Origin: Shigella phage phi2457T
Sequence record: MH917278
Direction: 5' to 3' (one strand)
Length of the DNA: 50,219 nucleotides
Shown here: in pieces, positions 2,889 to 46,869 of the stretch
Layout of the letters: every line of letters starts with the position of its first letter
How positions within the stretch are numbered: position 1 is the stretch's first letter
Position numbers and translations under genes: made by a program
Notes under the pieces: generated by a model
What the model saw: only the letters and a program-made list of their open reading frames with translations
What the model was told of the DNA's origin: nothing
The model's database searches: none

Positions 2889-3095
2889 ATGAAACTGCGG
2901 TGCATTGAATCAAATCAAATTAACTACTCAGAAGGCTTCGAATATGTCGCTCAAATCGATAGCTTTACAAACAAAAGCGGAGAGGTTATTGATGTGGTTC
3001 ATGGAGTGTATACGTGGTTCTACTTTGACAAGAAAGCTCTAACAGCAACTAAGCGCAATGGCGATGTGGTGGCTAAATTTAAACGTGAACAATGA
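2889..3095 (+). CDS. hypothetical protein, member of small paralogous family (KC(I/V)...G.IY motif)
   Basis: Internal ATG (MKLRCIESNQ) with SD gagga; N-terminal motif shared with ORFs 3107, 4856, 8516, 42579, 46453. Confidence 0.45.
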   Translation: MKLRCIESNQINYSEGFEYVAQIDSFTNKSGEVIDVVHGVYTWFYFDKKALTATKRNGDVVAKFKREQ

Positions 3096-3106
3096 GGATT
3101 GAAATC

Positions 3107-3595
3107 ATGAAAATTAAATTACTTTGCACTGGCGGTTACAAGGGCTTTACTCGCGACCTGGAATCTGACCCTATTATCGTTGACGCCGTGAAGTGCAATG
3201 ATAGCATTGGCGGCTACCGCGTCAAAGTCGATGACCTGGTTAAAGCTGGCGTGTACGATCTCAATTGCGGCCTATCGGTTAGTCCGGTATTTGGCCCGGC
3301 TGACTTCAACGAGAAGGACGGAACTATGTTCTTTTTCGATTGGGAAGTGCGGGCAAACATCAAGCCTCGCAAGGTTCGACTTCTCAACAATGGCGGTTAT
3401 CCTATGCTACCAGGTTATGAGAATCGCACATTCCCGGTTATTGTTGACTTTGAAGAAATAACCACACACTTAGCTTATATCAACGGTGAACAGCTTCATG
3501 CTGTTGGATTCGTGGGAGGTATGAATCAAGAGGCGCTGTGCTTCTTCCATCGCGAATCAGAGCCGTTCGATATTGAGTGTGAGCTAGTCTACTAA
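3107..3595 (+). CDS. hypothetical protein (162 aa)
   Basis: ATG with SD gagga 8 nt upstream; N-terminus MKIKLLCTGGYKGF resembles the paralogous family. Confidence 0.5.
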   Translation: MKIKLLCTGGYKGFTRDLESDPIIVDAVKCNDSIGGYRVKVDDLVKAGVYDLNCGLSVSPVFGPADFNEKDGTMFFFDWEVRANIKPRKVRLLNNGGYPMLPGYENRTFPVIVDFEEITTHLAYINGEQLHAVGFVGGMNQEALCFFHRESEPFDIECELVY

Positions 3596-3611
3596 GCACG
3601 AATTGTTAAAA
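3594..3611 (+). promoter_or_regulatory. conserved intergenic element copy
   Basis: aagcacgaattgttaaaa, hairpin ggggatt/aatcccc. Confidence 0.45.
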
Positions 3612-3660
3612 GGGGATTCGTCCTGACTGGTACAATCCCCACATCGACCACCAAGAGGAA

Positions 3661-4152
3661 ATGATTATGTTGAAATTAAACGAGATTAAATTCCCTGTAG
3701 TTTTTAACACCATTAGCTGCGGTAAAATAACCTGCCACAGCAAAGATCGTGCAACTGATTCGTCATTCAATGAGTGTCACCCGTCGATTGTTGGTAATCT
3801 CATTGAGCTTCATAACAATCACAATCCTGATAACATCCCATCTCTTCCATATTATGTTGAGAGTGCCGGGCCTGGTTGGAAAGTTGGTCGGGCCATCTTT
3901 CATGAATCAAAGCCAGAAATCAAGCCATCGCTACAGTGCACTCAGATCGAGAATATGCCACTTAGCGCAACGCTAAAAGGTGTCCAGATTAGCAGCGATT
4001 CTTGGGTTGAGATTACCGCGACACCAAAAACTATTGAGGTGCACGACGATATCATCACGCTTCTATTGCATCACGGCGGCTTCAAGAACAAGACGGTATC
4101 AGGTGAAATCAGCATTAAGCGCGGAACGCTTGTCCGCTATGAGGTGAAATAA
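3661..4152 (+). CDS. hypothetical protein (163 aa)
   Basis: ORF track; SD aagagga upstream. Confidence 0.5.
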   Translation: MIMLKLNEIKFPVVFNTISCGKITCHSKDRATDSSFNECHPSIVGNLIELHNNHNPDNIPSLPYYVESAGPGWKVGRAIFHESKPEIKPSLQCTQIENMPLSATLKGVQISSDSWVEITATPKTIEVHDDIITLLLHHGGFKNKTVSGEISIKRGTLVRYEVK

Positions 4153-4301
4153 TGGCTGCATGGGTATTGATTATCTTGATGAGCACCGGGCCGGATCACG
4201 TATACATGGAAAGTCAGCAAGCATGTAACAAGGCTCGGGAAGTGATTGCAGAAAACAAGCCGTTCGGATACGAAGTAAAAACAATGTGTGTTAAACGATA
4301 G
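4152..4301 (+). CDS. putative small membrane protein (49 aa)
   Basis: ATG overlaps previous stop (ATAATGG); hydrophobic N-terminus MAAWVLIILMS; stop TAG is the TAG of the conserved element at 4298, as for neighbouring genes. Confidence 0.3.
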   Translation: MAAWVLIILMSTGPDHVYMESQQACNKAREVIAENKPFGYEVKTMCVKR

Positions 4302-4316
4302 CACGAATTGCTAAAC
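4298..4316 (+). promoter_or_regulatory. conserved intergenic element copy
   Basis: atagcacgaattgctaaac, hairpin aaggcca/tggcctt with gatatagt in loop. Confidence 0.5.
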
Positions 4317-4381
4317 CTTCCGCAAGGCCATTTGATATAGTGGCCTTATTGAAGCACGGCAACCAATCAGAGGAATCAGCT

Positions 4382-4588
4382 ATGGCTACACGACTCACGC
4401 AGTGGCAGATTTACGACAAGGCTTCACGCCTTCGTGAATCACTTCGAGGTCTGACACCGAACGATCGCATAGAAATCATCGGTCATGCATTGCACGAACT
4501 AACGCCGCATGACGTAACCTATCATTCTTGCGGCAATAAATTTTGGAACGTAACATTCGAGGTGAAGGAAGATGAGCAAAACTCATAA
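4382..4588 (+). CDS. hypothetical protein (68 aa)
   Basis: Internal ATG (MATRLTQ) preceded by conserved leader aaccaatcagaggaatcagct. Confidence 0.45.
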   Translation: MATRLTQWQIYDKASRLRESLRGLTPNDRIEIIGHALHELTPHDVTYHSCGNKFWNVTFEVKEDEQNS

Positions 4589-4859
4589 ATTAAAAATCGC
4601 CACGGTACATTTCATTGGGGTAATGAACGGAACAAAAACGGCAGAGTTCCGCATCAATGACCGCAACTTCCAGCCTGGAGATATCCTGGAGCTATGCGAG
4701 TTCGATCGTGACGAGTTTACCGGGTGGGAAGTTCACGCCAGGGTGTCCGATGTTACAGACGTGACGCCATACATCAATCGCGGGTATGACGATCAGGAAT
4801 GCGACTTCACGCAATACGTGATGTTATCAATCAAACCTTACAGGAAGGTTAGACCATGA
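4572..4859 (+). CDS. hypothetical protein (95 aa)
   Basis: ORF track; SD gaagga; overlaps neighbours by a few nt (translational coupling). Confidence 0.45.
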   Translation: MSKTHKLKIATVHFIGVMNGTKTAEFRINDRNFQPGDILELCEFDRDEFTGWEVHARVSDVTDVTPYINRGYDDQECDFTQYVMLSIKPYRKVRP

Positions 4860-5494
4860 AATTTGAATGCGTATCAAGTGACGGAACGGGATTTAAGTGG
4901 GGAAAAATCTACGAAGGCGCTCGCGTCAATAACGACAGCTTCGTTGTCGTGGATGAGCACGGTAGCAATGTGAACATCATCCGTCGTCACGAATACCAAG
5001 AAATTTTCCTGCCGTATGGCGGTAGTTCAAAATATATCTTCCATCGAATCGTGGATGGTGTTAAATTTAACGACGTAATCGAAGCAATCAACCAACTGCA
5101 TAATAAAGAGGTAAAATTTATGAAATTCGAATGTATCAGTGATAACACCAAAAAATTTACCGTCGGCAAAATTTACGACGTTCCCTCTGAGCACGCTAAG
5201 CACACGGCTGTAATTACCGACGACACGGGCCGCAACCGCATTGCAACCGTAACTCACAACGGCGAGGGTCTTCGCTGGAATAGCGGCGGCACTAAGTTTG
5301 CAACGTTCGGCAAGAAGCGCAAGCGCACTTTTTGCGTAAATGGCAAGGTTACAGCAAACAAGATCCACAACGTCAAGCCATCGGAAGTTGATCGTAAGCC
5401 AGCGACGAAGTTTGAAGAGAAAGCAGATTTGTCTGGTCTGGCTATCGCTCTTGTTCTCCTGGTCGCTTCTATTTCGCTGATGTTCATCATGTAA
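4856..5494 (+). CDS. membrane-anchored protein with internal tandem duplication of the paralogous small domain
   Basis: MKFECVSSDGTGFKWGKIYEG... repeated as MKFECISDNTKKFTVGKIYDV...; C-terminal hydrophobic segment LAIALVLLVASISLMFIM. Confidence 0.5.
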   Translation: MKFECVSSDGTGFKWGKIYEGARVNNDSFVVVDEHGSNVNIIRRHEYQEIFLPYGGSSKYIFHRIVDGVKFNDVIEAINQLHNKEVKFMKFECISDNTKKFTVGKIYDVPSEHAKHTAVITDDTGRNRIATVTHNGEGLRWNSGGTKFATFGKKRKRTFCVNGKVTANKIHNVKPSEVDRKPATKFEEKADLSGLAIALVLLVASISLMFIM

Positions 5495-5642
5495 TGTTAA
5501 CGGGGAATCGGCTCTGAACGGTTCCCCTTTCTTTTGGAGAAAATTCTATGCCAGACTTTGATAACTGGAAAAACGAGCCGCCATCATTTCAGGAGTTGCT
5601 ATTCTGCCTCCTGGTTCTGACAATATCTCTTAAGGGTGTTTT

Positions 5643-5861
5643 ATGGCTACTATCATGACAGCGGAAGATGCAGCGCGTGACGCAGTGGAAGGGATGCGCC
5701 CAAATACCTCCAGAATCGCACACTACTACAATTTTGACGTGTCGGCAGTGCAGCTGGTCCATGAAATTTTAAGGCTTCCACAAGTCGATTCAGCGCGACT
5801 GGTGACGTGCTTAAAAAATTATTTTTGCATCACTATTAAAACGAATAGCACGAATTGCTAA
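5643..5861 (+). CDS. hypothetical protein (72 aa)
   Basis: ORF track; weak SD; 3' end overlaps the conserved element. Confidence 0.35.
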   Translation: MATIMTAEDAARDAVEGMRPNTSRIAHYYNFDVSAVQLVHEILRLPQVDSARLVTCLKNYFCITIKTNSTNC

Positions 5862-5864
5862 AAC
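5845..5864 (+). promoter_or_regulatory. conserved intergenic element copy
   Basis: atagcacgaattgctaaaac, hairpin ggggaat/attcccc. Confidence 0.5.
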
Positions 5865-5918
5865 CTATCAAGGGGAATGCGCTATGATTCCCCTACACCA
5901 ACGAACGAGGGAACACTC

Positions 5919-6365
5919 ATGAAACATTTGATTTGCATTGATACACCTAACAATGAACACACCCTGCACGGCATTGGAATGTTCAAAGGCCACTACATGA
6001 CAGCAAGCATTTATGATGCGCATCGAGGCGATGGCGATCTAATGATTACTTCAAAAGAAGTTAATCCGTACATCATGCAGAATCTCGGGAACAATGAGTA
6101 TATGGCTTACGGCTGCAACGCGGTGTACAAGCATATCAAGATCCGCAAGCGCGTAGTTCGCGCATTCAAGAAGATTGCAATTAAATACTGGAAGATGAGC
6201 AAGAAGGACGCCGGAACATGGGCGCGTAACGTTGCTGATTCATACTTCTATCGTAACGGTGAGTCGTGCTACTTTTTGATCGATGATATTCATGACAATT
6301 ACGGCGGCTCATTCAGTCAGGAAGAGTTTGATAGCTGGGCTGAATACGAGATCAGTTGCTGGTAA
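5919..6365 (+). CDS. hypothetical protein (148 aa)
   Basis: Internal ATG (MKHLICID) after leader acgaacgagggaacactc. Confidence 0.5.
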   Translation: MKHLICIDTPNNEHTLHGIGMFKGHYMTASIYDAHRGDGDLMITSKEVNPYIMQNLGNNEYMAYGCNAVYKHIKIRKRVVRAFKKIAIKYWKMSKKDAGTWARNVADSYFYRNGESCYFLIDDIHDNYGGSFSQEEFDSWAEYEISCW

Positions 6366-6384
6366 TAGCACTAATTGCTAAAAC
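6365..6384 (+). promoter_or_regulatory. conserved intergenic element copy
   Basis: atagcactaattgctaaaac, hairpin aagggcat/atgccctt with gatagaa loop. Confidence 0.5.
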
Positions 6385-6448
6385 TTGCTCAAGGGCATTT
6401 GATAGAATGCCCTTCGTTGAGTTAAGCAACCAATCATAGGAATAAATC

Positions 6449-6982
6449 ATGGATAAAATTACCATTTGGGGTCAAACTATCAACCTGTTTCTCGGCACGC
6501 GACGCGTGGCAATCTTTGACTTTGACGGAACGCTTAGTGATGGATCAAAGCGCCTTCACCTGTTGCCGACAAAGGATTTGCACTTAACTGAAAGCTGGTC
6601 TGAGTTTAACCGAGCGGCAATATTTGATAACCCAATCCAGAGCACGATTGAGGTTATGAACTCTATGTTTGCTGCCGGGTATCACGTAATAGTTTTAACC
6701 GGGCGAAGTGATGAGGTTCGTTACGCATCTGAGTTATGGCTTAAGCATCACGGTGCGAGATATGATTACTTAGTCATGCGACCGCACACAGACAACAGGA
6801 AAGACACGGTGATGAAAGAAGAAGCGGTGCGAGCGATCGGTATTGAAAACATCCTGGCAGCTTGGGATGACTCACCGCAAATTATTCCATTATTCCGGTC
6901 GCTTGGAATAACAACATATGCGGTAGTTGACTATGGCGATAACATTCACGATCATTTAAAATCGCACGGGGTAGAGAAATGA
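6449..6982 (+). CDS. HAD-superfamily phosphatase-like protein
   Basis: Motif I FDFDGTL, motif II-like VLTGRS, motif IV-like WDDSP; resembles the phosphatase domain of polynucleotide kinase/phosphatase or a nucleotidase. Confidence 0.55.
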   Translation: MDKITIWGQTINLFLGTRRVAIFDFDGTLSDGSKRLHLLPTKDLHLTESWSEFNRAAIFDNPIQSTIEVMNSMFAAGYHVIVLTGRSDEVRYASELWLKHHGARYDYLVMRPHTDNRKDTVMKEEAVRAIGIENILAAWDDSPQIIPLFRSLGITTYAVVDYGDNIHDHLKSHGVEK

Positions 6983-7090
6983 ACCTATACGAATTTATTG
7001 CAGCACATCCGGTATTGACGGTTATCATCCTGCTAATCATCAATCACACCATCATCAATATGGCAAAATTATTTTTAGGGAGATACTAAC

Positions 7091-7663
7091 ATGAAAACAG
7101 CTATCATTTTAAACGGCGCTCCTGGAGCAGGCAAGGACACTATCGGATGCATCCTGGCTGACACTTACGATCATGTAGCTTTGCGCAGCTTCAAAGCACC
7201 AATGTTTGAGATTGCTCGGGCAATCCTGGGTGAGGCTAACTACGAGTATTTCATGTTCTTGTATGGGAACCGTATATACAAAGAAGAGCCAGATTCCATC
7301 CTGAACGGTAAAAGCCCGCGCCAGTTTATGATCTGGATTAGCGAGGAAGTCATTAAGCCACAGTTCGGAAATCGCTTCTTCGGCATGCGAGCGGAAAGCA
7401 AGGTCAAAGAATCAGACTCCCTTTCGGTATTTACTGATGGTGGATTCAAAGATGAGGTATTGCAGATGATTGAAGGTGATATCCAGGTCAAGCTATGCCG
7501 AATCCACCGCAAAGGCTGCAACTTTGACAACGACAGTCGTGATTATATTTACCTGGAAGATATGATCGGGGTTAATGGTTATCAGGAGTGTGATTTCTTC
7601 TCTGTCGAAGGTCATCCAGAAATTACCGCTCAGCACATAGCCGCTACGTTCATCAACAAATAG
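7091..7663 (+). CDS. P-loop nucleotide kinase (dNMP-kinase-like)
   Basis: Walker A GAPGAGKDT at N-terminus; size ~190 aa typical of small NMP/dNMP kinases. Confidence 0.5.
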   Translation: MKTAIILNGAPGAGKDTIGCILADTYDHVALRSFKAPMFEIARAILGEANYEYFMFLYGNRIYKEEPDSILNGKSPRQFMIWISEEVIKPQFGNRFFGMRAESKVKESDSLSVFTDGGFKDEVLQMIEGDIQVKLCRIHRKGCNFDNDSRDYIYLEDMIGVNGYQECDFFSVEGHPEITAQHIAATFINK

Positions 7664-7679
7664 CACGAATTGCTAAAAC
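7660..7679 (+). promoter_or_regulatory. conserved intergenic element copy
   Basis: atagcacgaattgctaaaac with downstream gatatagt. Confidence 0.5.
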
Positions 7680-7735
7680 GTCGGTGGGGTGATTTGATAT
7701 AGTTACCTCATCGACAACGAAGAGAGAAAATCGAA

Positions 7736-7945
7736 ATGATGGTATCAACTGATAAGTTTTTCACTTGCACTAAAACTTCTGAAGTATTCGAACTCGTTCA
7801 TACTGATAACGGTGATTTCATGCATGACGGTTGCGACGTTTTCATTGAAGTGAAAGAAAGCGACTATGATGACGGAGTTTATTACAACCCGGCAGTTAAC
7901 ACTCAGTTTTTTACACCGATCGAAGATGAAGGAGAAGAGGCATGA
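7736..7945 (+). CDS. small acidic protein (69 aa)
   Basis: ORF track; Asp/Glu-rich (DYDDGVYY, EDEGEEA). Confidence 0.4.
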   Translation: MMVSTDKFFTCTKTSEVFELVHTDNGDFMHDGCDVFIEVKESDYDDGVYYNPAVNTQFFTPIEDEGEEA

Positions 7946-8286
7946 TTACGATTAACCTATCAGAGAAGCAAGCTCGTGAAATCCTTGATGCGATCGGCGA
8001 CCAATTGCACGTAAAAGGAGCAACTGCCGAGTTGCTCAACCAGATCGAAAAGCAACTTACTCCTGTTTCAACGAATCAAGCTGAGTTTGCAGCCTGGAAG
8101 AGCGAGCGCATCCTGCCAAATATCATCAAGGCATGGAAGCGCAAGCATAAAAAAGAAATCAATGTTGATGACTTATTTTCTGATGAATTAAGTCCTTCAA
8201 AGGTTGCTCAATATCAGTTGCGATACATGGAATCAGTTTGCAATCAGGTCTTAAATGTCAACTTTTCATTCGGGAGTGGTAAATAA
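7942..8286 (+). CDS. hypothetical protein (114 aa)
   Basis: ORF track; ATGA start/stop overlap with upstream gene; SD gaagga. Confidence 0.45.
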   Translation: MITINLSEKQAREILDAIGDQLHVKGATAELLNQIEKQLTPVSTNQAEFAAWKSERILPNIIKAWKRKHKKEINVDDLFSDELSPSKVAQYQLRYMESVCNQVLNVNFSFGSGK

Positions 8287-8516
8287 TGTTTGGTTTAAGT
8301 GAAGCGGAATGGAACGTGGTAAAGCGCGCGGCGAAGGAATTGAATAAATTTGTTAGCGGAATGAAGAAGGAAGATCGCAAAAACGAAAAGATTATGATTG
8401 ATGTGATCTCAACTCATCACAAAAAGGTTGAGCTACTCATCGACCGCTACAAGTTTGTATGGACCGCCGGATATATTGCAGGGCGCGTAGGTAACAAAGA
8501 GGGTGATTACGAATAA
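8286..8516 (+). CDS. hypothetical protein (76 aa)
   Basis: ORF track; SD gggag; TAATG coupling. Confidence 0.4.
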   Translation: MFGLSEAEWNVVKRAAKELNKFVSGMKKEDRKNEKIMIDVISTHHKKVELLIDRYKFVWTAGYIAGRVGNKEGDYE

Positions 8517-8719
8517 TGGCTAACTTACCGAAGAAAGGCGATCAGGTTCGATGTGTTACATCACGCAATGGTGATGCTTTCTCAGCGGGATGCTTGTATG
8601 ACGTTGAAAAAGTAAGTAAAGCAAAGAGACTCGTATTTGTATACGGAGACGATGGAAATATTCATGAGATTGACTACCCGCAGGATATTACTAAGGGCCA
8701 ATTTGAAATTAATGATTGA
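8516..8719 (+). CDS. hypothetical protein, paralogous-family-like (67 aa)
   Basis: ORF track; VRCVTSRNGDAFSAGCLYDV resembles the KC(I/V)...G.IY motif. Confidence 0.4.
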   Translation: MANLPKKGDQVRCVTSRNGDAFSAGCLYDVEKVSKAKRLVFVYGDDGNIHEIDYPQDITKGQFEIND

Positions 8720-8883
8720 CCTGAATCTCTGAGCGGTGATAGTATTAATCCCGTAGACAGACGAGGCGCAAATAAGCGCAACGCGTGAGACGATTCTCAC
8801 ACTTCCAGCTAACAAGCTCGGTTGCATAGTGGTTAAGCAACGCCGCAGACCCGTAAGCGGCAACAATTCAAGAGGATTGCGTA

Positions 8884-9045
8884 ATGCAAAATATCAAAAA
8901 CGAATCAGTCAAAATCGAAATTAAAGTAACTCGCAACGGCAAAACAACTCGTTATAAAAAGCGGTTAAATCATGGAGAGGCTGTTATTGGTCGCATCGAT
9001 GGCGTTATGATTAAGGCGCAAGAAGATGAAGCGATTCAAAGTTAA
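8884..9045 (+). CDS. hypothetical small protein (53 aa)
   Basis: ATG with strong SD aagagga; below ORF-track length cutoff. Confidence 0.3.
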   Translation: MQNIKNESVKIEIKVTRNGKTTRYKKRLNHGEAVIGRIDGVMIKAQEDEAIQS

Positions 9046-9212
9046 ATTGATCATTCGAAAGATGGGGATGTTTTGCCAATCATGCAAACAATCTTTCGAG
9101 ACTGAATTATCGGCAACCAGTCAGGCAGAAGCCATCGCGAAAGCAAAAAAACTTTCCGGCGCAAACCTTGACACTCACAAAATAAACATTGAATTAATTA
9201 AGGAGATCTAAC

Positions 9213-9440
9213 ATGGAAATTTTTTTATGGATTATCGCTGGTATCGTTATTTTTGGTGCTGGTTTATTTTCTGGCTTCGCACTTGTGGCGGCAGCAATTG
9301 CGATGGACGCGAAGGATAAAACTGGTGTATGGCTTACCTACTCACCAAAGAAGGATCAATGGGAAATGACTGGCGATCTTGCTCACTGCTACTCTAAAGC
9401 TCAGACCCACCCTAAAGGCATTAAACGACGATTATCGTGA
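9213..9440 (+). CDS. small membrane protein (75 aa)
   Basis: SD aaggag; N-terminal hydrophobic segment IFLWIIAGIVIFGAGLFSGFALVAAAIA; followed by terminator. Confidence 0.5.
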   Translation: MEIFLWIIAGIVIFGAGLFSGFALVAAAIAMDAKDKTGVWLTYSPKKDQWEMTGDLAHCYSKAQTHPKGIKRRLS

Positions 9441-9448
9441 TAAATACT

Positions 9449-9471
9449 AACCCGCTACGGCGGGTTTTTTT
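9449..9471 (+). terminator. rho-independent terminator
   Basis: Hairpin cccgctacggcggg followed by TTTTTTT. Confidence 0.65.
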
Positions 9472-9490
9472 ATGCCTGCAATATGGTAAA

Positions 9491-9509
9491 ATAGCACTAA
9501 ATGTTAAAC
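9491..9509 (+). promoter_or_regulatory. conserved intergenic element copy upstream of terminase small subunit
   Basis: atagcactaaatgttaaac preceded by ctgcaatatgg -10-like. Confidence 0.45.
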
Positions 9510-9524
9510 AAAGAGGGTATATTT

Positions 9525-10049: not shown

Positions 10050-10088
10050 CGTTACGGGCGCGAAAGCGCCCATGAAGGAGATTTAATT

Positions 10089-11657: not shown

Positions 11658-11711
11658 TAAATGAGATATAATCAAGGCTGTCAATTGACGGCCTTTTTTA
11701 TTGGAGGAAAC

Positions 11712-36512: not shown

Positions 36513-36519
36513 GTTTGTT

Positions 36520-36972: not shown

Positions 36973-36985
36973 CTTAATTCTCCTG

Positions 36986-37005
36986 TAGCACTTTTTGCTA
37001 AAAAC
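36986..37005 (+). promoter_or_regulatory. conserved intergenic element copy upstream of helicase
   Basis: tagcactttttgctaaaaac in divergent region. Confidence 0.45.
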
Positions 37006-37066
37006 GTTTACTGTATGCCGTGTATTATATCGTAAACGATACAACGATTCAAAGGATTAAATAGCC

Positions 37067-39085: not shown

Positions 39086-39498
39086 TTACAGATAAAGGCG
39101 ATTACTTAGAGTTTTACGAGCGAGATCCTAGCGACACGCGAAAGGAGGACGCTCATCAAGTAGACTGCGTGTCCTGGTTGAAATACAATTTTCCTCAGCT
39201 TCTATTTTGGCACACAGTTAACGAAGGTGAAAAAACAATCACTTCGGCACTTAGGGATGAGCAGGCTGGATTACTTAAAGGCGTATCAGACTTTGTTATT
39301 CTGATTGGTATAAACTCACGTTACCCGTTCGCAGCTATCGAACTCAAGCGGGTTAATAAGTCCGGCAAAGGAAAGGCATCACCAGTCAGCGATAAGCAAA
39401 GGGAGTTTCTCAAAAAGGTTCGGGATCGCGGTGGATTCTCTGCCGTTGCATACGGATTTGAGCAATTCAAGCTGGCAATATACGATTTAACGAAATAG
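39082..39498 (+). CDS. VRR-NUC domain nuclease (putative)
   Basis: 138 aa; ...AAIELKRVNKSGKGKASPVSDKQREFLKKVRDRGGFSAVAYG resembles VRR-NUC; ATGA overlap with helicase. Confidence 0.5.
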   Translation: MITDKGDYLEFYERDPSDTRKEDAHQVDCVSWLKYNFPQLLFWHTVNEGEKTITSALRDEQAGLLKGVSDFVILIGINSRYPFAAIELKRVNKSGKGKASPVSDKQREFLKKVRDRGGFSAVAYGFEQFKLAIYDLTK

Positions 39499-39513
39499 CA
39501 CTTTTTGCTAAAC
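39495..39513 (+). promoter_or_regulatory. conserved intergenic element copy
   Basis: atagcactttttgctaaac then hairpin and leader caccgaaacgagagga. Confidence 0.5.
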
Positions 39514-39565
39514 ATGCCGGAATGGATTCTGGCATTATTATCTCACCGAAACGAGAGGATTAAAA

Positions 39566-40279
39566 ATGAAAGACTTTAATGATATCGAAACCATTGATTT
39601 TGCTGAAACTGGTTGCTCATTTACTCGCGAAGCAATAGCATCAGGCGGTTATTATCAGGCATTGAAAACCCCAACCTGCAAAGAGATTTCAGGACGTCGA
39701 TACAAGGGAACCAATACGCCGGATGCTGTTCGTGATTTATGGTCAACTCCACGAGAGGTTATCGCATATCTTGAGGGGCGCTACGGAAAATATGATCTAG
39801 ACGCTGCGGCAAGCGAAGAAAATAAAGTTTGCGAGAAGTTTTATTCCCAGGAAACAAACTGCTTAAAACGTTGGTGGGGTAAAAATAAGCACGTATGGTT
39901 AAATCCTCCTTACAGTCGACCTGATATATTCGTCAAGAAAGCGATTGAGCAAATGGAGCACAACAACCAGATCGATATTCTTTTACCTGCCGATAACTCG
40001 ACGGCGTGGTTTACTGAGGCTCGACAGCACGCGGCTGAAATCATCTGGATTGAAGCTGATTTGACTGAGGATATTGACGGAAATGAATACGCACGATCCG
40101 GTCGTCTGGCTTTCATATCAGGTGAAACTGGAAAAGCCGTAGACGGCAACAATAAAGGTTCGGTTATTTTTATTATGCGCGAACTTAAAGAAGGTGAGAC
40201 GCAACAGACTCACTACATCCCAATCACAAGCATTTGTCCTTCCGTTAAAAACAAACGAGCAAAGGTGAGAAAAGTATGA
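39566..40279 (+). CDS. dam: DNA N6-adenine methyltransferase (Dam-like)
   Basis: 237 aa with catalytic DPPY-type motif NPPYS; typical phage Dam size. Confidence 0.75.
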   Translation: MKDFNDIETIDFAETGCSFTREAIASGGYYQALKTPTCKEISGRRYKGTNTPDAVRDLWSTPREVIAYLEGRYGKYDLDAAASEENKVCEKFYSQETNCLKRWWGKNKHVWLNPPYSRPDIFVKKAIEQMEHNNQIDILLPADNSTAWFTEARQHAAEIIWIEADLTEDIDGNEYARSGRLAFISGETGKAVDGNNKGSVIFIMRELKEGETQQTHYIPITSICPSVKNKRAKVRKV

Positions 40280-40527
40280 TGAGCGAAAAAATGGTTCCTG
40301 TTAAATTAACTGATCAAGGGTTATGGCTTCTTTATCGCGCTACGTGCTGCGAAATTATGGAGAGAAACGGATTAACTCAAGATGTTATTGGTTGCGATTT
40401 ATGGGAGTTTACAAGTTCTCTTGATATGTCGTTCGATGAGATAAAGAATAAACACATAGAGCATTGGCCTTCAATCATTCAGAAAGACGTAGAAGAACTT
40501 AAATCCGACACGATCTTACAGCACTAA
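40276..40527 (+). CDS. hypothetical protein (83 aa)
   Basis: ORF track; ATGA overlap with dam. Confidence 0.4.
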   Translation: MMSEKMVPVKLTDQGLWLLYRATCCEIMERNGLTQDVIGCDLWEFTSSLDMSFDEIKNKHIEHWPSIIQKDVEELKSDTILQH

Positions 40528-40537
40528 TTGCTAAAAC
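40519..40537 (+). promoter_or_regulatory. conserved intergenic element copy
   Basis: cagcactaattgctaaaac overlapping stop codon, then hairpin acccg/cgggt and tatagt. Confidence 0.45.
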
Positions 40538-40593
40538 TACCCGGCGAAAGTCGGGTATAGTTATTTCATCAAAACGAAATGAGGAATAATAAG

Positions 40594-40803
40594 ATGGCAC
40601 GCATTAACGCAAACTTTTTCAATATCGCTCAGCAGTCTGCAAAAATGGCTGTTCATATCACTGAAAAGCAAGGCGGCAATTTTGATTGGGATATTGCTAT
40701 GAACTTCCTTAAAATGGCTTACTATCGCTGCTCAGTCAAAGATGTTGAGTGTTTTATTGAAAGCGTGGAGAAATTAACCAATGTTGATAAAAAAACAAGG
40801 TAA
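40594..40803 (+). CDS. hypothetical protein (69 aa)
   Basis: Internal ATG (MARINANFF) with SD gagga. Confidence 0.4.
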   Translation: MARINANFFNIAQQSAKMAVHITEKQGGNFDWDIAMNFLKMAYYRCSVKDVECFIESVEKLTNVDKKTR

Positions 40804-41053
40804 ACGCGAGGTTTGGGAGCACGCGAAGGAATGCGGAATCTCAGACGATATAGCACTAATAGCGAAATATTTCGATATAAAGGATGTTAGCATTATATCA
40901 AATGGCAAGATTTCATTTATGGAAGATATGCCGAGAAAAATGCATAGAGTGCCAGCAACTCCGTCACTTGAGTTTTATCGTGAAGAAGGAAAGAGAATTG
41001 AGCGAGAACGAAAAGCAGCAAAAAACAACAAGCCTTCCAGGCTTAAATATTAA
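40781..41053 (+). CDS. hypothetical protein; possibly 5' part of a frameshifted gene continuing to 41285
   Basis: ORF 40781..41053 is overlapped in the +1 frame by ORF 40884..41285, which lacks a credible start after 41053. Confidence 0.3.
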   Translation: MLIKKQGKREVWEHAKECGISDDIALIAKYFDIKDVSIISNGKISFMEDMPRKMHRVPATPSLEFYREEGKRIERERKAAKNNKPSRLKY

Positions 41054-41363
41054 CGCAGAAGATTATCATACTATCTGGATCGGAAAAAAGCAGGTTAAGA
41101 AAATCCCTTTCTCTGATTGGTTGCCTCCTGACTTCGTTAATGTGCTTTGCACTATCGGTATGGAACATGAGTTGCGTATAGGTTACTACTCACCTGGCAG
41201 AAACAGTATGATGCTTGAGGTTGACGGAAAGCTGGTTGAGTTTAAATCGTCAGATCTAGGATTCTGGTTAAAGGCTGTGGCATGAATCTTTATTTTGCTG
41301 TAGTATTAACACCGCTAATTTCATTTTCAGTAATGTATTTCATTATCATGTAAGGATTAAAAT

Positions 41364-42515
41364 ATGTCACAAGCTAAAATCACTACCGAGCAACTTATCG
41401 AAGAGCGCATGAGCGGCCTTACACTTCGCGAGATCGCGGAAAAGTACGGTATGCACATCCGCACAGTTGAAGCGCGTCACGCCAAACTTGCAAAAGAAGG
41501 TCACTTCCACGGTAACGAGCATGTTGCTAAGAACGTACCGGAAGGATTCATGGTAAAAGGAACATCAACGATGATTCGCGGCGATGGGACCGAGGTAGTG
41601 CGATGGGTTAAGACCGATCAGGACCGAGAGAAGATTGCTGCAATGATGGAAGCAGCGCGTATTGCATTCTGTGAAGACTTGCCGCGAGCAAAACCAACCG
41701 AGCTACTCACCTCGCAAGGGCTTACAACCGCTATTGGCAAGCTGGCACTCTACCCGGTGTTCGATCTTCACATTGGCGCGCTTGCTCACAAGCATGAATG
41801 CGGAGAGAACTACTCTACAGACGTAGCGGAAAAAGTGCTGAATGACTTCTTTAACTACGCGATCGATATTGCCCCGAACGCAGAGAAGGCTGTTCTGTTA
41901 ATCGGAGGCGACTTCCTTCACTCAGACGGTCTTGATGCTGTTACCCCGGCAAGTGGTCACGTTCTGGATCAGGATTCACGATATGCGAAATTGGTGCATG
42001 TGGCTATTCGATCGGTGCGACGAGCTATCGACAAAATGCTGACTAAACACAAAGAGGTCGAAGTTCAGGTTATCGAAGGGAACCACGACCAGGCCGGAAT
42101 GATTTGGCTACGCGCTGCAATGGCTGCATACTATGAGGACGAGCCGCGAGTATTCGTTGACGTTAGTCCTATGATTCTGCATAAGACCCGCTGGGGAAAT
42201 ACCTTGTTGGGATACACTCACGGTCACACGATGAAAAAGGCAGACACGCGACTTGCAGCGATGGCAGCAGATTTCCGCGCAGATTTTGGTGAAAGCAAAT
42301 ACGTGTACACGCATAGCGGACACTGGCATCATCAGACAATTACTGAACACTCGTTAGGTATTGATGAAGTGCACGGTCAGTTAGGCGCGAAGGATGCATA
42401 CGCAGCACGCGGAGGGTGGCGCTCATATCGCCAGGCGGCGGTAATTGTTTACGATAAGCAATTTGGGGAAATCGGTCGTTTCATCTATCGTCCAGAAATG
42501 ACAGGATCGCACTAA
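41364..42515 (+). CDS. metallophosphoesterase-family protein with N-terminal HTH domain
   Basis: N-terminus LTLREIAEKYGMHIRTVEARH (HTH-like); phosphoesterase motifs DLHIGALAH, GGDFLHSDG, EGNHD (GNHD as in Mre11/SbcD-type enzymes). Confidence 0.5.
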   Translation: MSQAKITTEQLIEERMSGLTLREIAEKYGMHIRTVEARHAKLAKEGHFHGNEHVAKNVPEGFMVKGTSTMIRGDGTEVVRWVKTDQDREKIAAMMEAARIAFCEDLPRAKPTELLTSQGLTTAIGKLALYPVFDLHIGALAHKHECGENYSTDVAEKVLNDFFNYAIDIAPNAEKAVLLIGGDFLHSDGLDAVTPASGHVLDQDSRYAKLVHVAIRSVRRAIDKMLTKHKEVEVQVIEGNHDQAGMIWLRAAMAAYYEDEPRVFVDVSPMILHKTRWGNTLLGYTHGHTMKKADTRLAAMAADFRADFGESKYVYTHSGHWHHQTITEHSLGIDEVHGQLGAKDAYAARGGWRSYRQAAVIVYDKQFGEIGRFIYRPEMTGSH

Positions 42516-42526
42516 TTGATAAAAAC
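42507..42526 (+). promoter_or_regulatory. conserved intergenic element copy (degenerate)
   Basis: tcgcactaattgataaaaac then gggtatagt and leader catcgaaaacaaagagga. Confidence 0.4.
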
Positions 42527-42578
42527 ACCAGAAGGGATTCGGGTATAGTAACAACATCGAAAACAAAGAGGATATATC

Positions 42579-42755
42579 ATGAAGCGAGTTAAGTGCATCC
42601 GAAATGATTCCAAAACGCTTCCATTCCGCGTAAATCAGATCTATAGTGTCGGTTATGATTTCGGAGGTGGATTGTTTGAGATTTACGATGGTAGAGGTTC
42701 AACAATCAAAGCTCCTATGAACGGTCATTACCTGGAATTTATTGAGCTAGATTAA
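42579..42755 (+). CDS. small paralogous-family protein (58 aa)
   Basis: ATG after conserved leader; MKRVKCIRNDSKTLPFRVNQIYSVGYDFGGG matches the KC(I/V)...G.IY family motif. Confidence 0.4.
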   Translation: MKRVKCIRNDSKTLPFRVNQIYSVGYDFGGGLFEIYDGRGSTIKAPMNGHYLEFIELD

Positions 42756-42873
42756 CAATATCATTCATAACCTTACGGGCTGGCATGGTTTACATGCTGG
42801 CCTTTTTGCGTTGTGTCAAATATATTTGAGGGTTAAAATCAACTCACTTGTTCAAAAAATAAATGGTGATATT

Positions 42874-43089
42874 ATGAAAGAGTTTTTAACTGCGGCGACG
42901 TCCAGCACTGGCGGTGCTTCACTAGTCGGTGCCGCTACTGGGCAACTTTATATTGCTGGCGCTACATTCATTTGCTTTCTTCTTTTTGGCGTATGGGGCG
43001 CGTACTGGAAGTATCGAGATAGCAAGGCAATCCAGGAGGCGCTAAACGATGGCGATCTTAATAAGGCGCTTAGGATTAGGGGGCGATAA
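42874..43089 (+). CDS. holin (pinholin-like, two TMDs)
   Basis: 71 aa; TMD1 Gly/Ala-rich [21 protein letters not shown]2 [15 protein letters not shown], charged C-terminus; directly upstream of endolysin. Confidence 0.55.
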
Positions 43090-43577
43090 TGGGATTAAAA
43101 AATAACGTTATAGGCGCATCGATCGGGGCTGCTTTGACTTTGACACCTACACTACTGGAACGAATCGAAGGGATAGAATACGAAGTGTATTACGATATAG
43201 CCGGAGTCCCTACAGTATGCAGCGGAATAACCGGGCCGGACGTCATACCTGGCAAGAAATACACTAAGCGAGAATGCGATGCATTACTGATAAAACATAT
43301 CGGCGTCGCTCAGCGATACGTTGACAAGAAGGTTAAGGTTGAAATTCCGGTAACGATGCGCGCCTCACTCTACAGCTTTACTTTCAACGTTGGTACTGGC
43401 GCATTCGGATCTTCTACAATGCTTAAGCTAATCAATCAGAGTAAGCACAAGGAGGCGTGCAATCAGTTATGGCGATGGGTATACTACTACAATCCAAAAA
43501 CAAAAAAGCGCGAAGTGTCTAGAGGACTCAAGAACCGACGCGCTGAAGAATACGCGTATTGCGTTAAGGAATTATGA
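43089..43577 (+). CDS. endolysin, lysozyme (T4/P1 lysozyme-like) with SAR-like N-terminus
   Basis: Catalytic region [23 protein letters not shown] matches the E-D-T signature of phage lysozymes; N-terminal [17 protein letters not shown] is weakly hydrophobic and Gly/Ala-rich. Confidence 0.8.
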
Positions 43578-43978
43578 TGAAACTGAAGAAAACGTGCATT
43601 GCGATTGCAGTGGCTGTTGGTGTTATTTCTCTATCCGGTTGCTCGACGGCATCTGCTCTGAGCGGTTTACTTTCTGACTCCCCGGATGTTACTGCGCAGG
43701 TTGGCGCTGAGAACACTAAGCAACTGGCGGGAGTTACTGCAAAGGCCGACGATAAGCGAGAAGTGAAGGTGAGTGATTCAAATATTGGCAAGATTGACTC
43801 ATCCGTCAAGAAGTCTGTGGAAGTGTCAACCATTCAGGCTAACACGGTTAACGCTGAAAGCATCACGGTAACAAAACCGGGGAACTGGTACGATGCAATT
43901 GTAGGGTGGACTCTCGTTTTTATTGGCCTGTTGATGATTTATTTTTCACTTCGTAAGAACGGAAAAAAGGAGGCTTAG
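43574..43978 (+). CDS. unimolecular spanin (u-spanin, T1 gp11-like)
   Basis: N-terminal lipoprotein signal with lipobox LSGC plus C-terminal [16 protein letters not shown] in the same polypeptide; last gene of lysis cassette. Confidence 0.7.
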
Positions 43979-43993
43979 CCTCCTTTTCTTTTA
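43962..43993. terminator. bidirectional terminator
   Basis: Hairpin aaggaggcttagcctcctt flanked by A-run and T-rich run between convergent genes. Confidence 0.6.
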
Positions 43994-44206
43994 TGCGTCT
44001 TCCCACATATAACTTTCGTTCGTGAGTTTTGCGTATTCGCGAACCTCAATCTCGCAGGTGTCGCCGTACATCTCAGCGACCTTCTTCTCGTTCGCTACCG
44101 CCGTTTCTTCAGTCCATCCATCATCCTTGCTGTAAAGGGTAGGAATCTCACTACTAGTGCCGTTAGAGTGGTTGTAAACGCGAACTACTAAAAATTTGTC
44201 AGCCAT
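43991..44206 (-). CDS. hypothetical protein (71 aa)
   Basis: ORF track; preceded on minus strand by conserved element, hairpin acccgatc/gatcgggt and SD. Confidence 0.4.
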   Translation of the reverse strand: MADKFLVVRVYNHSNGTSSEIPTLYSKDDGWTEETAVANEKKVAEMYGDTCEIEVREYAKLTNESYMWEDA

Positions 44207-44270
44207 GATGTTTTCCTTCAGGTCGTTTAATTTCGATGAAACAAATATACCCGATACGAGATCGGGTGTT

Positions 44271-44288
44271 TTAACAAAAAGTGCTATT
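44271..44288 (-). promoter_or_regulatory. conserved intergenic element copy (minus orientation)
   Basis: Plus strand ttaacaaaaagtgctatt = reverse complement AATAGCACTTTTTGTTAA. Confidence 0.5.
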
Positions 44289-44395
44289 TGTACCTTTTTA
44301 CGTGAAGGAGTAACTCCCCCTCCTTATCGCAAAGATTATGCTCGCTTTCGTTACTGGACCTCATTGAAGTGAGTAACAGACTCAACAACCCTTGC

Positions 44396-44803
44396 TCAAA
44401 TTCTTCTTTCGTAAGCTGGAGCCTTGCGCACAATTCGACGTTCCGATCTATCAATGTTTCTACGTTCGCCAAACAAATCTTCATCACTCATCTCTCCAAT
44501 GTGCATCATTTCCCACGTATACCGATTGTTGTAGCCATCAATACACATCAGCTTCATCATTACCGGGCGCTTAATCTTTCCCTTGCACCAGTAAACTCCA
44601 TCCTTGCGATCTAAGTAACCCTCAGTCACGCAACGAGCGCAAAACTCCTTAGATAGCGCGCTTGTAAATTCACGGCGAGTCATTCCAGCAGCCTTAGCAA
44701 AACGCTCACTTTCCTTGTGGGCGTATATAAATTTCGCTATGTGCTGTCGAGTGTATTTGTCGTAACCTTCGCAGAACCTGAACAGATCTAAAAGAAGAAG
44801 CAT
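44396..44803 (-). CDS. hypothetical Cys-containing protein (135 aa)
   Basis: ORF track; translationally coupled to upstream gene; several Cys (CARCV, WCKG, MCIDG). Confidence 0.4.
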   Translation of the reverse strand: MLLLLDLFRFCEGYDKYTRQHIAKFIYAHKESERFAKAAGMTRREFTSALSKEFCARCVTEGYLDRKDGVYWCKGKIKRPVMMKLMCIDGYNNRYTWEMMHIGEMSDEDLFGERRNIDRSERRIVRKAPAYERRI

Positions 44804-44807
44804 ATTA

Positions 44808-46376
44808 TTAACCCATCAGTCGAGGATTGATGAAAACAATATCATCAATGCGGCAAGTGTAGTTCATCTCTTCGAGCGTGATCAGCAGGCTATCTATTCT
44901 CTCAGATACTTTCTGTTGACCGTTGAACGGAGTAACGTTCCGGCACTTTGCAACGATGCTATGAATAGGAGCGCGCCCTTTATTCTTCTTTGCGATCTCA
45001 GTGATAACATCAATCAGCTTACGAGATTCAGCCTCATCACCAGCATACCCGGCAGCGCTGGCAGACGACAGATAAGTCCTGGAAAGCTCATTGAAGATCA
45101 TGATTGCTTCCTGCATCGTTTCAAGGTCAATCTCACGGTTGGAACGGTTCGGTGATTCACCCTCCCAATTCTTGATCGTGTGGAGAACTGAAGCAATACG
45201 CAAGGCGTGCTTATCGAACTTTCCGAGATGACCGCGTAGCATTGAGTGAGAGTATTTCCCACCTGCGGCGAAATCCGGCTCCATCGCCTGACGCGCAAGG
45301 TTTAATTCACGCATAGCATTACGACTTACAGAAAGAACAACGTTTTCCTCCTTCATAATGTTGTGCACGAGTCGATAATATTTACTCACCAATCCTCGAT
45401 CTACTTCCTTATACAGTGCATCACCATTTTCATCGCAAAGGATACGAGTACCTAAAAGAGGTTCCTCACGAACAAGAAGGAAGCGCTCAGATACGCCGAT
45501 GCCTCGTTGGCCTGCGTCCATGATACCCTTGATTGTTTCATCCTGCGCAATAACGCAGATGGAACCGACCGGGCAAAGGGACAAGTTGTTATCCTGGTTG
45601 GAACGCGCCACCTCCATATGGTTTTTATCCCACGCCTTAAGGATAAGCTCACTATTTGATTTCTTGTCTGAACCCCCATAAGTCAGGCCGAGCAATGTAT
45701 TGATTGCTGTCGCCTCATCAGAGATTACGGAGAAATGACCTTGAACAGCAGCTACTTTCGCTAGACCTTCTGGTGTAGGATCTGATACCGCGAAAACAAT
45801 ATCAGCCATCTTCTTGATTTTCTCTTCCAGTTTTTCTTTGTCCTCGTATAGCGCTGCCGTCGTGTTACCCTTCGGGTCGTTCTTAATTTCCTTCTCGACC
45901 TGACGTAGCTGACTGGTTAAACGGATACGTTCCTTTTTTCGCTCTTCATTCAGTCGCTGAATCTCTGCGCGCATAGGCGTAATCGCTGCGGAGTTAATCG
46001 CAGATTTACCTGTTGACGGTGGCTGGCTGATTACCATGTAAAGAGCGGTTGGTTGTTCTTCTCCGTGATATTGCACCCAAAACTTCCCGAGCATCGCGGC
46101 TGAGATGCACCCAATGAAATGAGCGTACGCAGACGAAACAGGGAACTGTACAGACTCGGCCTTTGCTTTTGCATATTCGAATACCAGGTTATCGCCACCT
46201 AACGAAATCAGAGGGAACTTATCGTTGCCGCTATTGATATCGATCGGATCTTGCCAAAATGAAACTGAGTCACCATAGCTGTTTTCACGAATTGCGATCG
46301 CCACCGGATTAACTCCAGTACTATTGGCGATCTCAATAATCTGTTGGTAATTCAGTTTTGGCTTAATATTAAACAT
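44808..46376 (-). CDS. large early protein with P-loop-like motif and central coiled coil (function unknown)
   Basis: Internal ATG (MFNIKPK) with SD aaggag; PPSTGKSA motif; Lys/Glu-rich coiled-coil segment; conserved element and hairpin upstream. Confidence 0.5.
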   Translation of the reverse strand: MFNIKPKLNYQQIIEIANSTGVNPVAIAIRENSYGDSVSFWQDPIDINSGNDKFPLISLGGDNLVFEYAKAKAESVQFPVSSAYAHFIGCISAAMLGKFWVQYHGEEQPTALYMVISQPPSTGKSAINSAAITPMRAEIQRLNEERKKERIRLTSQLRQVEKEIKNDPKGNTTAALYEDKEKLEEKIKKMADIVFAVSDPTPEGLAKVAAVQGHFSVISDEATAINTLLGLTYGGSDKKSNSELILKAWDKNHMEVARSNQDNNLSLCPVGSICVIAQDETIKGIMDAGQRGIGVSERFLLVREEPLLGTRILCDENGDALYKEVDRGLVSKYYRLVHNIMKEENVVLSVSRNAMRELNLARQAMEPDFAAGGKYSHSMLRGHLGKFDKHALRIASVLHTIKNWEGESPNRSNREIDLETMQEAIMIFNELSRTYLSSASAAGYAGDEAESRKLIDVITEIAKKNKGRAPIHSIVAKCRNVTPFNGQQKVSERIDSLLITLEEMNYTCRIDDIVFINPRLMG

Positions 46377-46432
46377 CACAATAAACTCCTTAGTTGACGG
46401 TGTAAATGATACACCGACAATGGTACACGCGT

Positions 46433-46450
46433 TTTGCAAAAAGTGCTATT
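46433..46450 (-). promoter_or_regulatory. conserved intergenic element copy (minus orientation)
   Basis: Plus strand tttgcaaaaagtgctatt; hairpin cggtgta/tacaccg lies between it and the gene start. Confidence 0.45.
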
Positions 46451-46452
46451 GG

Positions 46453-46869
46453 TTATAAGTATTTGGCCTCAAAGGTTGTGCCGTCTGCGATACTAAAACC
46501 AACCTCTTCGCGAAATAAGGTCCAGCGACAACCATCTTCATCAAAGATGTAACCAGCTACGCCACCGAGAGCGCGACCGCTTTCAACCTGGTAACGCTTG
46601 CCAACTTTGAATGATTTTTTCATTGGGTTGCGATGGTCAAGCCCGGTGCACTTGAGCGTCTTTGTTTTCAACTCAGTGAACTTCGCGAAGAAGATTTCAT
46701 CAGATCCGTGAATCTGTAATTCATCATGCTTTTCAAGTTTTAAATACTTGCCGCATTTTAACTTGATTTCACGAGTGCCATCATAGCGCTCACGACCTTT
46801 GTATAGGTTGTTTACTTCAAATCCTGTGATTTTATCTGCGTGAGTGCATTTCAGTTTGATGGATTTCAT
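46453..46869 (-). CDS. paralogous-family protein (138 aa)
   Basis: MKSIKLKCTHADKITGFEVNNLYKG matches family motif; conserved leader caagataaccaatcaggag upstream. Confidence 0.45.
   Translation of the reverse strand: MKSIKLKCTHADKITGFEVNNLYKGRERYDGTREIKLKCGKYLKLEKHDELQIHGSDEIFFAKFTELKTKTLKCTGLDHRNPMKKSFKVGKRYQVESGRALGGVAGYIFDEDGCRWTLFREEVGFSIADGTTFEAKYL

Follow-up and report, generated by a model that had tools for sequence, protein, structure and literature searches.

The genome of Shigella phage phi2457T (sequence record MH917278; the window analysed is the whole stretch of 50,219 nucleotides) encodes a dispersed set of small proteins that, taking family and fold together, very probably constitute a family of ~60-residue SH3-type small β-barrels. 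The source is a T1-like phage of the genus Tunavirus, family Drexlerviridae, with about 97% identity to Shigella phage Sfin-1/4. Six of its genes, with eight domains, were assigned to the family by sequence comparison: open reading frames (ORFs) 2627, 2889, 8516 and 42579, with one domain each, and ORFs 4856 and 46869, with two each. They are joined, through its fold, by the product of a gene at positions 1130–1324, which is homologous to Gp54 of Escherichia phage Bas11. The best overall explanation, to which a probability of about 0.5 is given, combines this family and fold with a less certain role of the SH3-type barrel proteins as cytoplasmic binders at the phage–host interface. The features concerned (lengths in amino acids, aa; pI, isoelectric point) are as follows.

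1130–1324, plus strand: ORF 1130–1324, 64 aa, Gp54 (Bas11) homologue, family relative by fold
2627–2818, plus strand: ORF 2627, 63 aa, pI 4.05, family member by sequence, without the strand-1 cysteine
2889–3095, plus strand: ORF 2889, 68 aa, putative member, detectable in its N-terminal part
3107–3595, plus strand: ORF 3107, 162 aa, not a member
4856–5494, plus strand: ORF 4856, 212 aa, two predicted barrels and a C-terminal membrane helix
4856–5059, plus strand: ORF 4856 domain a, residues 1–68, predicted six-stranded barrel
5120–5326, plus strand: ORF 4856 domain b, residues 89–157, predicted six-stranded barrel
5429–5494, plus strand: ORF 4856 C-terminal membrane helix, residues 192–211, up to the stop codon
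8516–8719, plus strand: ORF 8516, 67 aa, single-domain member
42579–42755, plus strand: ORF 42579, 58 aa, single-domain member, Pfam DUF7244
46453–46869, minus strand: ORF 46869, 138 aa, two predicted barrels
46669–46869, minus strand: ORF 46869 domain a, residues 1–67, variable N-terminal barrel
46453–46665, minus strand: ORF 46869 domain b, residues 69–138, highly conserved basic barrel

The six ORFs singled out by the earlier note (2889, 3107, 4856, 8516, 42579 and 46869) are all present where it had placed them, with start codons matching the gene lengths of Shigella phage Sfin-1 and a Shine–Dalgarno-like site 5–9 nucleotides (nt) upstream of each. The ratio of non-synonymous to synonymous substitution rates (dN/dS) against Tunavirus orthologues is 0.03–0.19 where computable (ORF 2889 had no usable pairs); the ORFs are therefore real, constrained genes, and they are under purifying selection. 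Shigella phages Sfin-1 to Sfin-6 share ~97.5% identity with bases 2800–9300, and all of the ORFs concerned are labelled ‘hypothetical protein’ in the RefSeq record of Sfin-1. The description of a dispersed set of small homologues is borne out for five of the six named ORFs and extends to two further relatives, ORF 2627 and ORF 1130–1324.

Family membership

Membership was assessed against an external repeat profile holding no sequence of this genome. A hidden Markov model (HMM) built from 177 repeats of 42 non-T1 proteins was searched against the six-frame segments of the genome and recovered ORF 4856 (E = 1.8e-16), ORF 46869 (1.3e-8), ORF 8516 (1.2e-8), ORF 42579 (7.2e-6), ORF 2627 (3.6e-4) and, marginally, ORF 2889 (0.02), the best reversed-sequence control reaching E = 0.074. 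Resolved by domain, the values are 5e-7 and 4e-9 for domains a and b of ORF 4856, and 0.043 and 1.8e-5 for domains a and b of ORF 46869. Profile–profile alignment with hhalign against the same repeats gave probabilities of 96% and 97% for domains a and b of ORF 4856, 97% for ORFs 8516 and 42579, 89% and 94% for domains a and b of ORF 46869, 92% for ORF 2889 and 86% for ORF 2627; all 12 control families, drawn from other small proteins of this genome, stayed at or below 1.8%. The alignments cover 54 columns in ORF 8516 and 39 in ORF 2627, and the first 23 residues only in ORF 2889.

Leave-one-family-out HMMs, scanned across the full set of 697 six-frame segments, always returned the omitted family as the best non-seed match (E = 4.5e-12 for ORF 4856, 7.8e-6 for ORF 42579, 2.9e-5 for ORF 46869, 0.09 for ORF 2889 and 0.27 for ORF 8516). 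Among PHROG families, domain b of ORF 4856 matches phrog_9122, the PHROG of ORF 2889, at 8.5e-7. In Pfam, ORF 42579 matches DUF7244 (PF23896; gathering cut-off 27 bits) over its full length with 97.6 bits (E = 4.4e-28). ORFs 46869 (16.6 bits) and 4856 (14.2 bits) fall below the DUF7244 cut-off, ORFs 2889, 8516, 3107 and 2627 gave no match to it at E up to 1, and a search of NCBIfam gave no match. On these scores the members other than ORF 42579 are superfamily-level relatives rather than formal DUF7244 members.

The earlier note had defined the family by an N-terminal motif, (K/R)C(I/V)-x6-9-G-x-(I/L)Y-x-V, which in this literal form matches none of the six ORFs exactly: ORF 4856 has glutamate before the cysteine, ORF 8516 a 10-residue spacer, and ORFs 42579 and 46869 asparagine for glycine. 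Relaxed, the motif is a true hallmark of a large family, as the external repeats make clear, and the cysteine and tyrosine are kept in all seven domains of the confirmed named ORFs; the DDxG hairpin further along the domain is unclear in ORF 2889. Pairwise Smith–Waterman alignment with 1000 shuffles, a check that the note itself had proposed, bore out the relationship between the two halves of ORF 4856 (z = 9.3) and left the other pairs at z = 2–4. The internal similarity indicates that ORF 4856 arose by tandem duplication, and its C-terminal membrane helix is likewise present in the structural model, so that both of the features claimed for this protein stand. Descent by duplication inside the genome is shown for these two domains only. 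As a statement about six ORFs, the proposed family is sustained for 2889, 4856, 8516, 42579 and 46869, with seven domains between them (hhalign 89–97% and the external HMM), and fails for ORF 3107.

That there is no real family, and that short β-rich ORFs picked by eye resemble one another by chance, is a reading with several observations on its side: the literal motif matches nothing, most pairwise z scores are only 2–4, ORF 3107 was indeed wrongly included, and tests that lean on the motif are biased because the ORFs had been chosen by eye for it. This bias affects hhalign comparisons among shallow, Tunavirus-only profiles, in which the right pairs ranked top with low probabilities, mostly over the N-terminal motif by which the ORFs had been selected; these were discarded in favour of the external profile. 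Chance resemblance is nevertheless given almost no probability: a profile without any sequence of this genome recovers members at 1e-16 to 1e-5, the alignments reach past the motif (54 columns in ORF 8516) while controls do not exceed 1.8%, and two separately modelled members have the same single outstanding neighbour in the Protein Data Bank (PDB). It is refuted for ORFs 4856, 8516, 42579 and 46869, and conceivable only for the C-terminal part of ORF 2889.

A wider superfamily of tandem repeats

Word-indexed homologue searches reached T1-like orthologues only, and a repeat-alignment query added no architecture or names. An exhaustive profile search over 1.84 billion representative proteins returned 106 representatives at E ≤ 1e-3, comprising T1-like orthologues and many phage-like tandem-repeat proteins (P0092, P0102, P0104 and P0120, for example) with 2 to 10 copies of a ~55-residue unit per chain. 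The consensus of the unit is KVKCIDNSG..LTVGKVYEV....Y.I.DD.G....RFE.V. The tandem-repeat proteins exceed the gathering cut-offs of DUF6501 (PF20111) and/or DUF7244, several exceeding both, and one of them is encoded within a series of small ORFs, unannotated and all on one strand, of the sort typical of accessory regions in phages.

Among the 177 external repeats the cysteine is conserved in 154 (87%), the tyrosine in 175 (99%), the glycine in 151 and the phenylalanine in 148 (84%). From this pattern the superfamily hallmark can be written as [KR]-C-[ITV] in strand 1, a loop, L-T-x-G-K-x-Y-x-V in strand 2, a D-D-x-G hairpin and R-F-E-x-V in the last strand. The strand-1/strand-2 hallmark and the DDxG hairpin of DUF7244, a family of the SH3 clan, are common to the other members, which fall below its cut-off and were thus left unannotated, unlike ORF 42579. 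By their sequences, the members in this genome are a divergent part of a phage-wide superfamily overlapping DUF7244 and DUF6501. DUF6501 and the tandem-repeat phage proteins share the same ~55-residue unit and differ in arrangement, with 2–10 copies per chain and often coiled-coil or cysteine-rich tails, whereas the members here are mostly scattered single-domain genes.

Several tandem-barrel proteins (P0153, P0154, P0168 and P0170) carry a conserved cysteine-rich C-terminal tail, C.C......C.YH, exemplified by ECACGIARAVCQYHKP, which looks like a small metal-binding motif. A set of giant proteins (1,300–4,400 aa; P0075, P0076, P0078, P0079, P0087, P0088 and others) was rejected from the superfamily: they match profile positions 26–49 only and score highly through many repeated ‘ITRTY..TD.CGN’ hairpins, a motif-level likeness to the DDxG hairpin.

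Fold and relation to Gp54

Models of ORF 46869 (from 27 sequences) and ORF 4856 were computed with AlphaFold2 (AF2), both without templates. The ORF 46869 model (mean predicted local distance difference test score, pLDDT, 88.7; predicted template modelling score 0.78) is all-β and consists of two six-stranded domains, with pLDDT of 82–94 in domain a. That of ORF 4856 has two six-stranded barrels joined by a short linker helix, followed by a disordered basic stretch and then by the helix of residues 192–211 that runs up to the protein end. Most of its 10-residue blocks have pLDDT of 76–90, with dips to 59–64 at residues 41–60 in domain a and to 69 at residues 111–120 in domain b, which otherwise lies at 79–90 over most of its length. 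The strands of domain a comprise residues 2–8, 18–25, 28–32, 38–45, 50–53 and 60–66; this domain was modelled from a shallow alignment because MAFFT places domain-a-only sequences onto domain b.

The sole close solved relative of the four modelled domains is Gp54 of Bas11 (PDB 9axb and 9erv), and the shared fold that the earlier note had suggested looking for by structure prediction is present, ORFs 46869 and 4856 both being six-stranded barrels superimposable on 9axb. That structure was released in November 2024, after AF2 training, and no templates were used; the agreement in fold is therefore independent of the prediction. A Foldseek search of BFVD with the ORF 46869 model returned ORF 4856 orthologues (E ~2e-4 to 5e-4) and DUF7244 proteins (0.02–0.06), all uncharacterised.

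Gp54 folds into a small barrel of six strands, the first two of which are connected by a prominent loop, in a topology called ‘very rare’ by its authors; it is non-essential, dispensable for plaque formation and of unknown function (PMC11578894). It binds and activates the toxin–antitoxin defence protein CapRelSJ46 directly: Gp54 partly unfolds, and its hydrophobic core clamps the pseudo-zinc-finger of that protein (PMC11578894). Its discoverers speculated that Gp54 might inhibit another defence (PMC11578894). With 64 residues, Gp54 resembles the family in being small and six-stranded and in its long strand 1–2 loop; unlike the family, it lacks the conserved cysteine and has no significant sequence similarity to the C-x-G-K-x-Y-x-V proteins. 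It is encoded by a relative of phi2457T, and its direct homologue in this genome is ORF 1130–1324 (phmmer E = 2.3e-13 against 9axb_A). This ORF, first used as a negative control, scores 0.6% with hhalign against the external repeats.

Sequence homology to Gp54 was not found for the seven domains of the named ORFs or for ORF 2627. The best signal, in register over 47 columns of ORF 46869 domain b, has P = 0.0015 as the best of 21 comparisons, the others being at least 0.026. Gp54 is thus placed, from the models, as a relative by fold, for which common descent is plausible. The Bas10 homologue, which differs from that of Bas11 by A7V and I25V, does not activate CapRelSJ46, and restoring both residues suffices (PMC11578894). 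At these two positions, A7 and I25 in Bas11, ORF 1130–1324 has V7 and T25, and judging by these residues this copy may not trigger CapRelSJ46. Ksap1 of Dhillonvirus, the trigger of KpAvs2, was considered as a candidate for a further relative.

Two better-known types of barrel differ from the family. The classical SH3 domain has five strands and a 3-10 helix, whereas the family has six strands and no sequence match to it. SH3b cell-wall-binding domains differ in that the family lacks a secretion signal and is not fused to a wall hydrolase; comparison with known SH3b families revealed neither a sequence relationship nor a close match in structure, and Pfam gave no SH3b match at E up to 1. In the models, the family fold resembles that of Gp54 far more than that of SH3b domains.

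ORF 4856 and a possible structural role

ORF 4856 has the only membrane helix among the members. Its C-terminal end, LSGLAIALVLLVASISLMFIM, is preceded by a basic, disordered linker, and no N-terminal signal sequence could be read from the sequence. Because the signal peptide is lacking and the helix lies at the extreme C terminus behind the basic linker, the protein is expected to be tail-anchored in the inner membrane, its two barrels facing the cytoplasm. The full-length protein occurs in 67 records, all from Tunavirus. Its counterpart in phage T1 (P0033, 124 aa) consists of domain b and the membrane helix only, and stand-alone ORFs with domain a also occur in the protein database.

ORF 2627 shares phrog_14592 with domain b of ORF 4856. 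It equals in length the gene gp26 of Sfin-1 (192 nt), and the external HMM finds the corresponding Sfin-1 ORF at E = 1.4e-5. By its sequence ORF 2627 is a member, overlooked by the earlier note. The label of this PHROG, ‘virion structural protein’, raises the possibility that the barrels are virion or morphogenesis proteins, with matches of 3.2e-7 for ORF 4856 domain b and 0.0047 for ORF 2627; a ‘putative morphogenetic protein’ label is also carried in GenBank records by some gene within 2800–9300, the ORF not being pinned down. Such labels are untested annotations, all members lie outside the structural gene block (~9.5–31 kb), and a tail-anchored inner-membrane protein is unlikely as a virion part. 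Gp54 is, moreover, dispensable for plaque formation (PMC11578894). A virion role is accordingly regarded as highly improbable.

ORFs 2889 and 8516

The detectable relationship of ORF 2889 is limited to strand 1, the loop and strand 2 (hhalign P = 6e-7 over 23 columns), and its homologue P0096 also matches ORF 8516. The match of the external HMM to ORF 8516 spans model positions 1–54, and homologues of this ORF are found in 102 phage records.

ORF 42579 and the lysis cassette

ORF 42579 sits between an exonuclease gene and the holin–endolysin–spanin cassette. Its orthologue is the ‘standalone SH3’ gene adjoining the lysis cassette of the T1-like phage KanT1, published in 2026, in a position reported as conserved in 188 of 522 Drexlerviridae (PMC13164509). 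There it is presented as a lone gene linked to lysis, and paralogues at other places in the genome go unmentioned (PMC13164509).

As proposed for this orthologue of KanT1, the barrels could be lysis accessories, that is, SH3b-like cell-wall-binding modules helping the endolysin. The conserved gene position favours such a role, as does the binding of peptidoglycan by SH3b domains in endolysins of Gram-positive phages. The evidence from the proteins themselves points the other way: the sequence of ORF 42579 lacks both a signal peptide and a membrane segment, the other members are encoded far from the lysis genes, the barrels of ORF 4856 should lie on the cytoplasmic side, and among the members neither a Pfam SH3b match at E up to 1 nor access to the cell wall was found. 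Pinholin holes are too small for folded proteins, and a cytoplasmic barrel should for this reason not reach the wall before the envelope fails; a system of pinholin and signal-arrest-release (SAR) endolysin gives the ORF 42579 protein no route to the periplasm. The KanT1 cassette is of this kind (PMC13164509). A lysis role is improbable for the family and for ORF 42579 itself, distinctly more so than the nucleic-acid-binding role considered below.

ORF 46869 and the replication genes

ORF 46869 is nearly universal, with homologues in 823 phage records. Its two domains have pI values of 8.9 and 9.3, and domain b shows nine invariant columns across 27 homologues, with K88, K91, R92, R99 and R120 conserved in the protein. 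The ORF ends 13 nt upstream of a gene for a 543-aa DUF3987 protein (44808–46439, minus strand; Pfam E = 2.7e-42), called ‘DNA helicase’ in relatives. A homologue lies upstream of the DUF3987 gene in three further genera, directly so in Webervirus and with 1–2 small genes between in Jhansiroadvirus and Rogunavirus. ORF 46869 thus looks more like a conserved core gene.

These properties are those that would be looked for if the family consisted of nucleic-acid-binding small barrels (of the Sm, KOW, Tudor or Sso7d type) acting in replication, recombination or transcription, above all for ORF 46869 with its basic conserved residues, wide distribution and place directly upstream of the helicase-like gene here and in Webervirus. 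A segment weakly resembling the family, located C-terminally in the helicase that the phage itself encodes, here and in T1, points in the same direction. Most members and external repeats are, however, acidic, with a median pI of 5.5 and a range from 4.05 in ORF 2627 (very acidic) to 9.3 in domain b of ORF 46869 and 9.8 in domain b of ORF 4856. Adjacency is weak evidence, since synteny extends over most of the genome in Drexlerviridae, and helicase domains match the structures no better than peptide-binding SH3 domains do. Nucleic-acid binding as the role of the family is judged unlikely.

A proposed role at the phage–host interface

The reading preferred here, that of cytoplasmic binders, is consistent with the lack of export signals: none was found in the members, whose sequences open with MK.. 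already within strand 1 and lack a hydrophobic leader. The domains would be cytoplasmic protein-binding modules that have duplicated and diverged toward different host or phage partners. The accessory members (ORFs 2627 and 2889, domain a of ORF 4856, and Gp54) would be host-interface or anti-defence factors, and for ORF 46869, which is basic and almost universal, a service to the neighbouring replication genes is more probable. By sequence, this genome and Sfin-1 have six detectable members and T1 has four (T1 regions 1–8990 and 37583–47756); in these regions T1 lacks ORFs 2627 and 2889 and domain a of ORF 4856.

The earlier note had pointed to host takeover or anti-defence, a reading that is plausible because the closest solved structure is Gp54 and a Gp54 homologue is present here. 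Tight binding of a host protein by a barrel of this type is demonstrated by Gp54, whose only known activity is the activation of CapRelSJ46. That most accessory members act at the phage–host interface, in takeover, in anti-defence or as immune targets, is a tentative proposal, held with less than even confidence.

Several considerations weigh against these readings. The modelled fold covers ORFs 46869 and 4856, and ORFs 2627, 2889, 8516 and 42579 were placed by sequence; the weakest such assignment is ORF 2889, which aligns over 23 residues only. The link to the Gp54 family is structural, and its sequence signal is weak (P = 0.0015 as one of 21). The role proposed for the sequence-defined family is argued by analogy with Gp54, and small barrels are notoriously versatile, binding peptides, nucleic acids or sugars. 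With its basic domains and its 823 records, ORF 46869 fits a core replication function better than that of an arms-race effector. The interaction of Gp54 with CapRel represents sensing by the host and is not proof of a benefit to the phage.

A more specific form of the proposal is that Gp54-like barrels are a diversified toolkit of metastable binders, each paralogue clamping another host or defence protein by opening of the barrel. Argued from Gp54, this is a doubtful extension. If it were true, T1-like phages would carry six or seven effectors, one of them tethered to the inner membrane, and it is precisely the Gp54 fold that host immune sensors, CapRel among them, would have evolved to exploit. 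The ‘very rare’ topology would then mark out a major group of phage proteins acting at the host interface, so far unrecognised and present as tandem arrays in many phage lineages.

Other loci

ORF 3107 was rejected as a member: the external HMM gives E = 4.8, its halves score 3.4% and 2.5% with hhalign, and it has no PHROG in common with the others. It forms a separate family (phrog_9595) with an apparent duplication of its own, of a ~80-residue unit with the pattern K[IV][KR]LL..GGY ... FP[IV]IVD. Two of its stretches match phrog_13367, and its halves align with a Smith–Waterman z of 3.5 and an hhalign P of 0.004.

Between a kinase-like gene and ORF 8516 lies a 114-aa ORF (7942–8286, plus strand) that matches Pfam DUF7180 (E = 7e-32). 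The helicase mentioned above (37067–39085, plus strand; 672 aa) matches the repeat profile weakly (E = 0.048) at residues ~552–592, around VIYKYTLINDDGDEFKAYEKF, and its T1 orthologue has a similar C-terminal match (E = 0.0045). The helicases RecD and Dda carry an SH3-like domain, and the C-terminal segment here may represent a comparable fusion of such a domain to the enzyme.

Implications

The SH3 clan, DUF7244, DUF6501 and the structure of Gp54 were already known, and in this genome only ORF 42579 had been recognised. What is added is that five more genes of the genome belong to the family of the DUF7244 member, that T1-like phages carry several dispersed copies of the family, which in other phages occurs as tandem arrays, and that, according to the models, its fold is the Gp54 barrel. 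A literature search found no paper reporting the added genes, a dispersed multi-copy family or the Gp54-barrel fold.

About half of T1-like genes are without an assigned function. Six or seven of them now fall into one structural family, in which five ‘hypothetical’ genes are related to the DUF7244 member. The published idea that the DUF7244 member is a cell-wall-binding helper of lysis needs re-examination because the family appears cytoplasmic. The family is tied to Gp54, the only solved structure of its kind and a direct trigger of CapRel. The results suggest that the Gp54 fold is widespread among phages and present several times in one genome, and they raise the question of whether other paralogues are sensed by, or inhibit, other defence systems.

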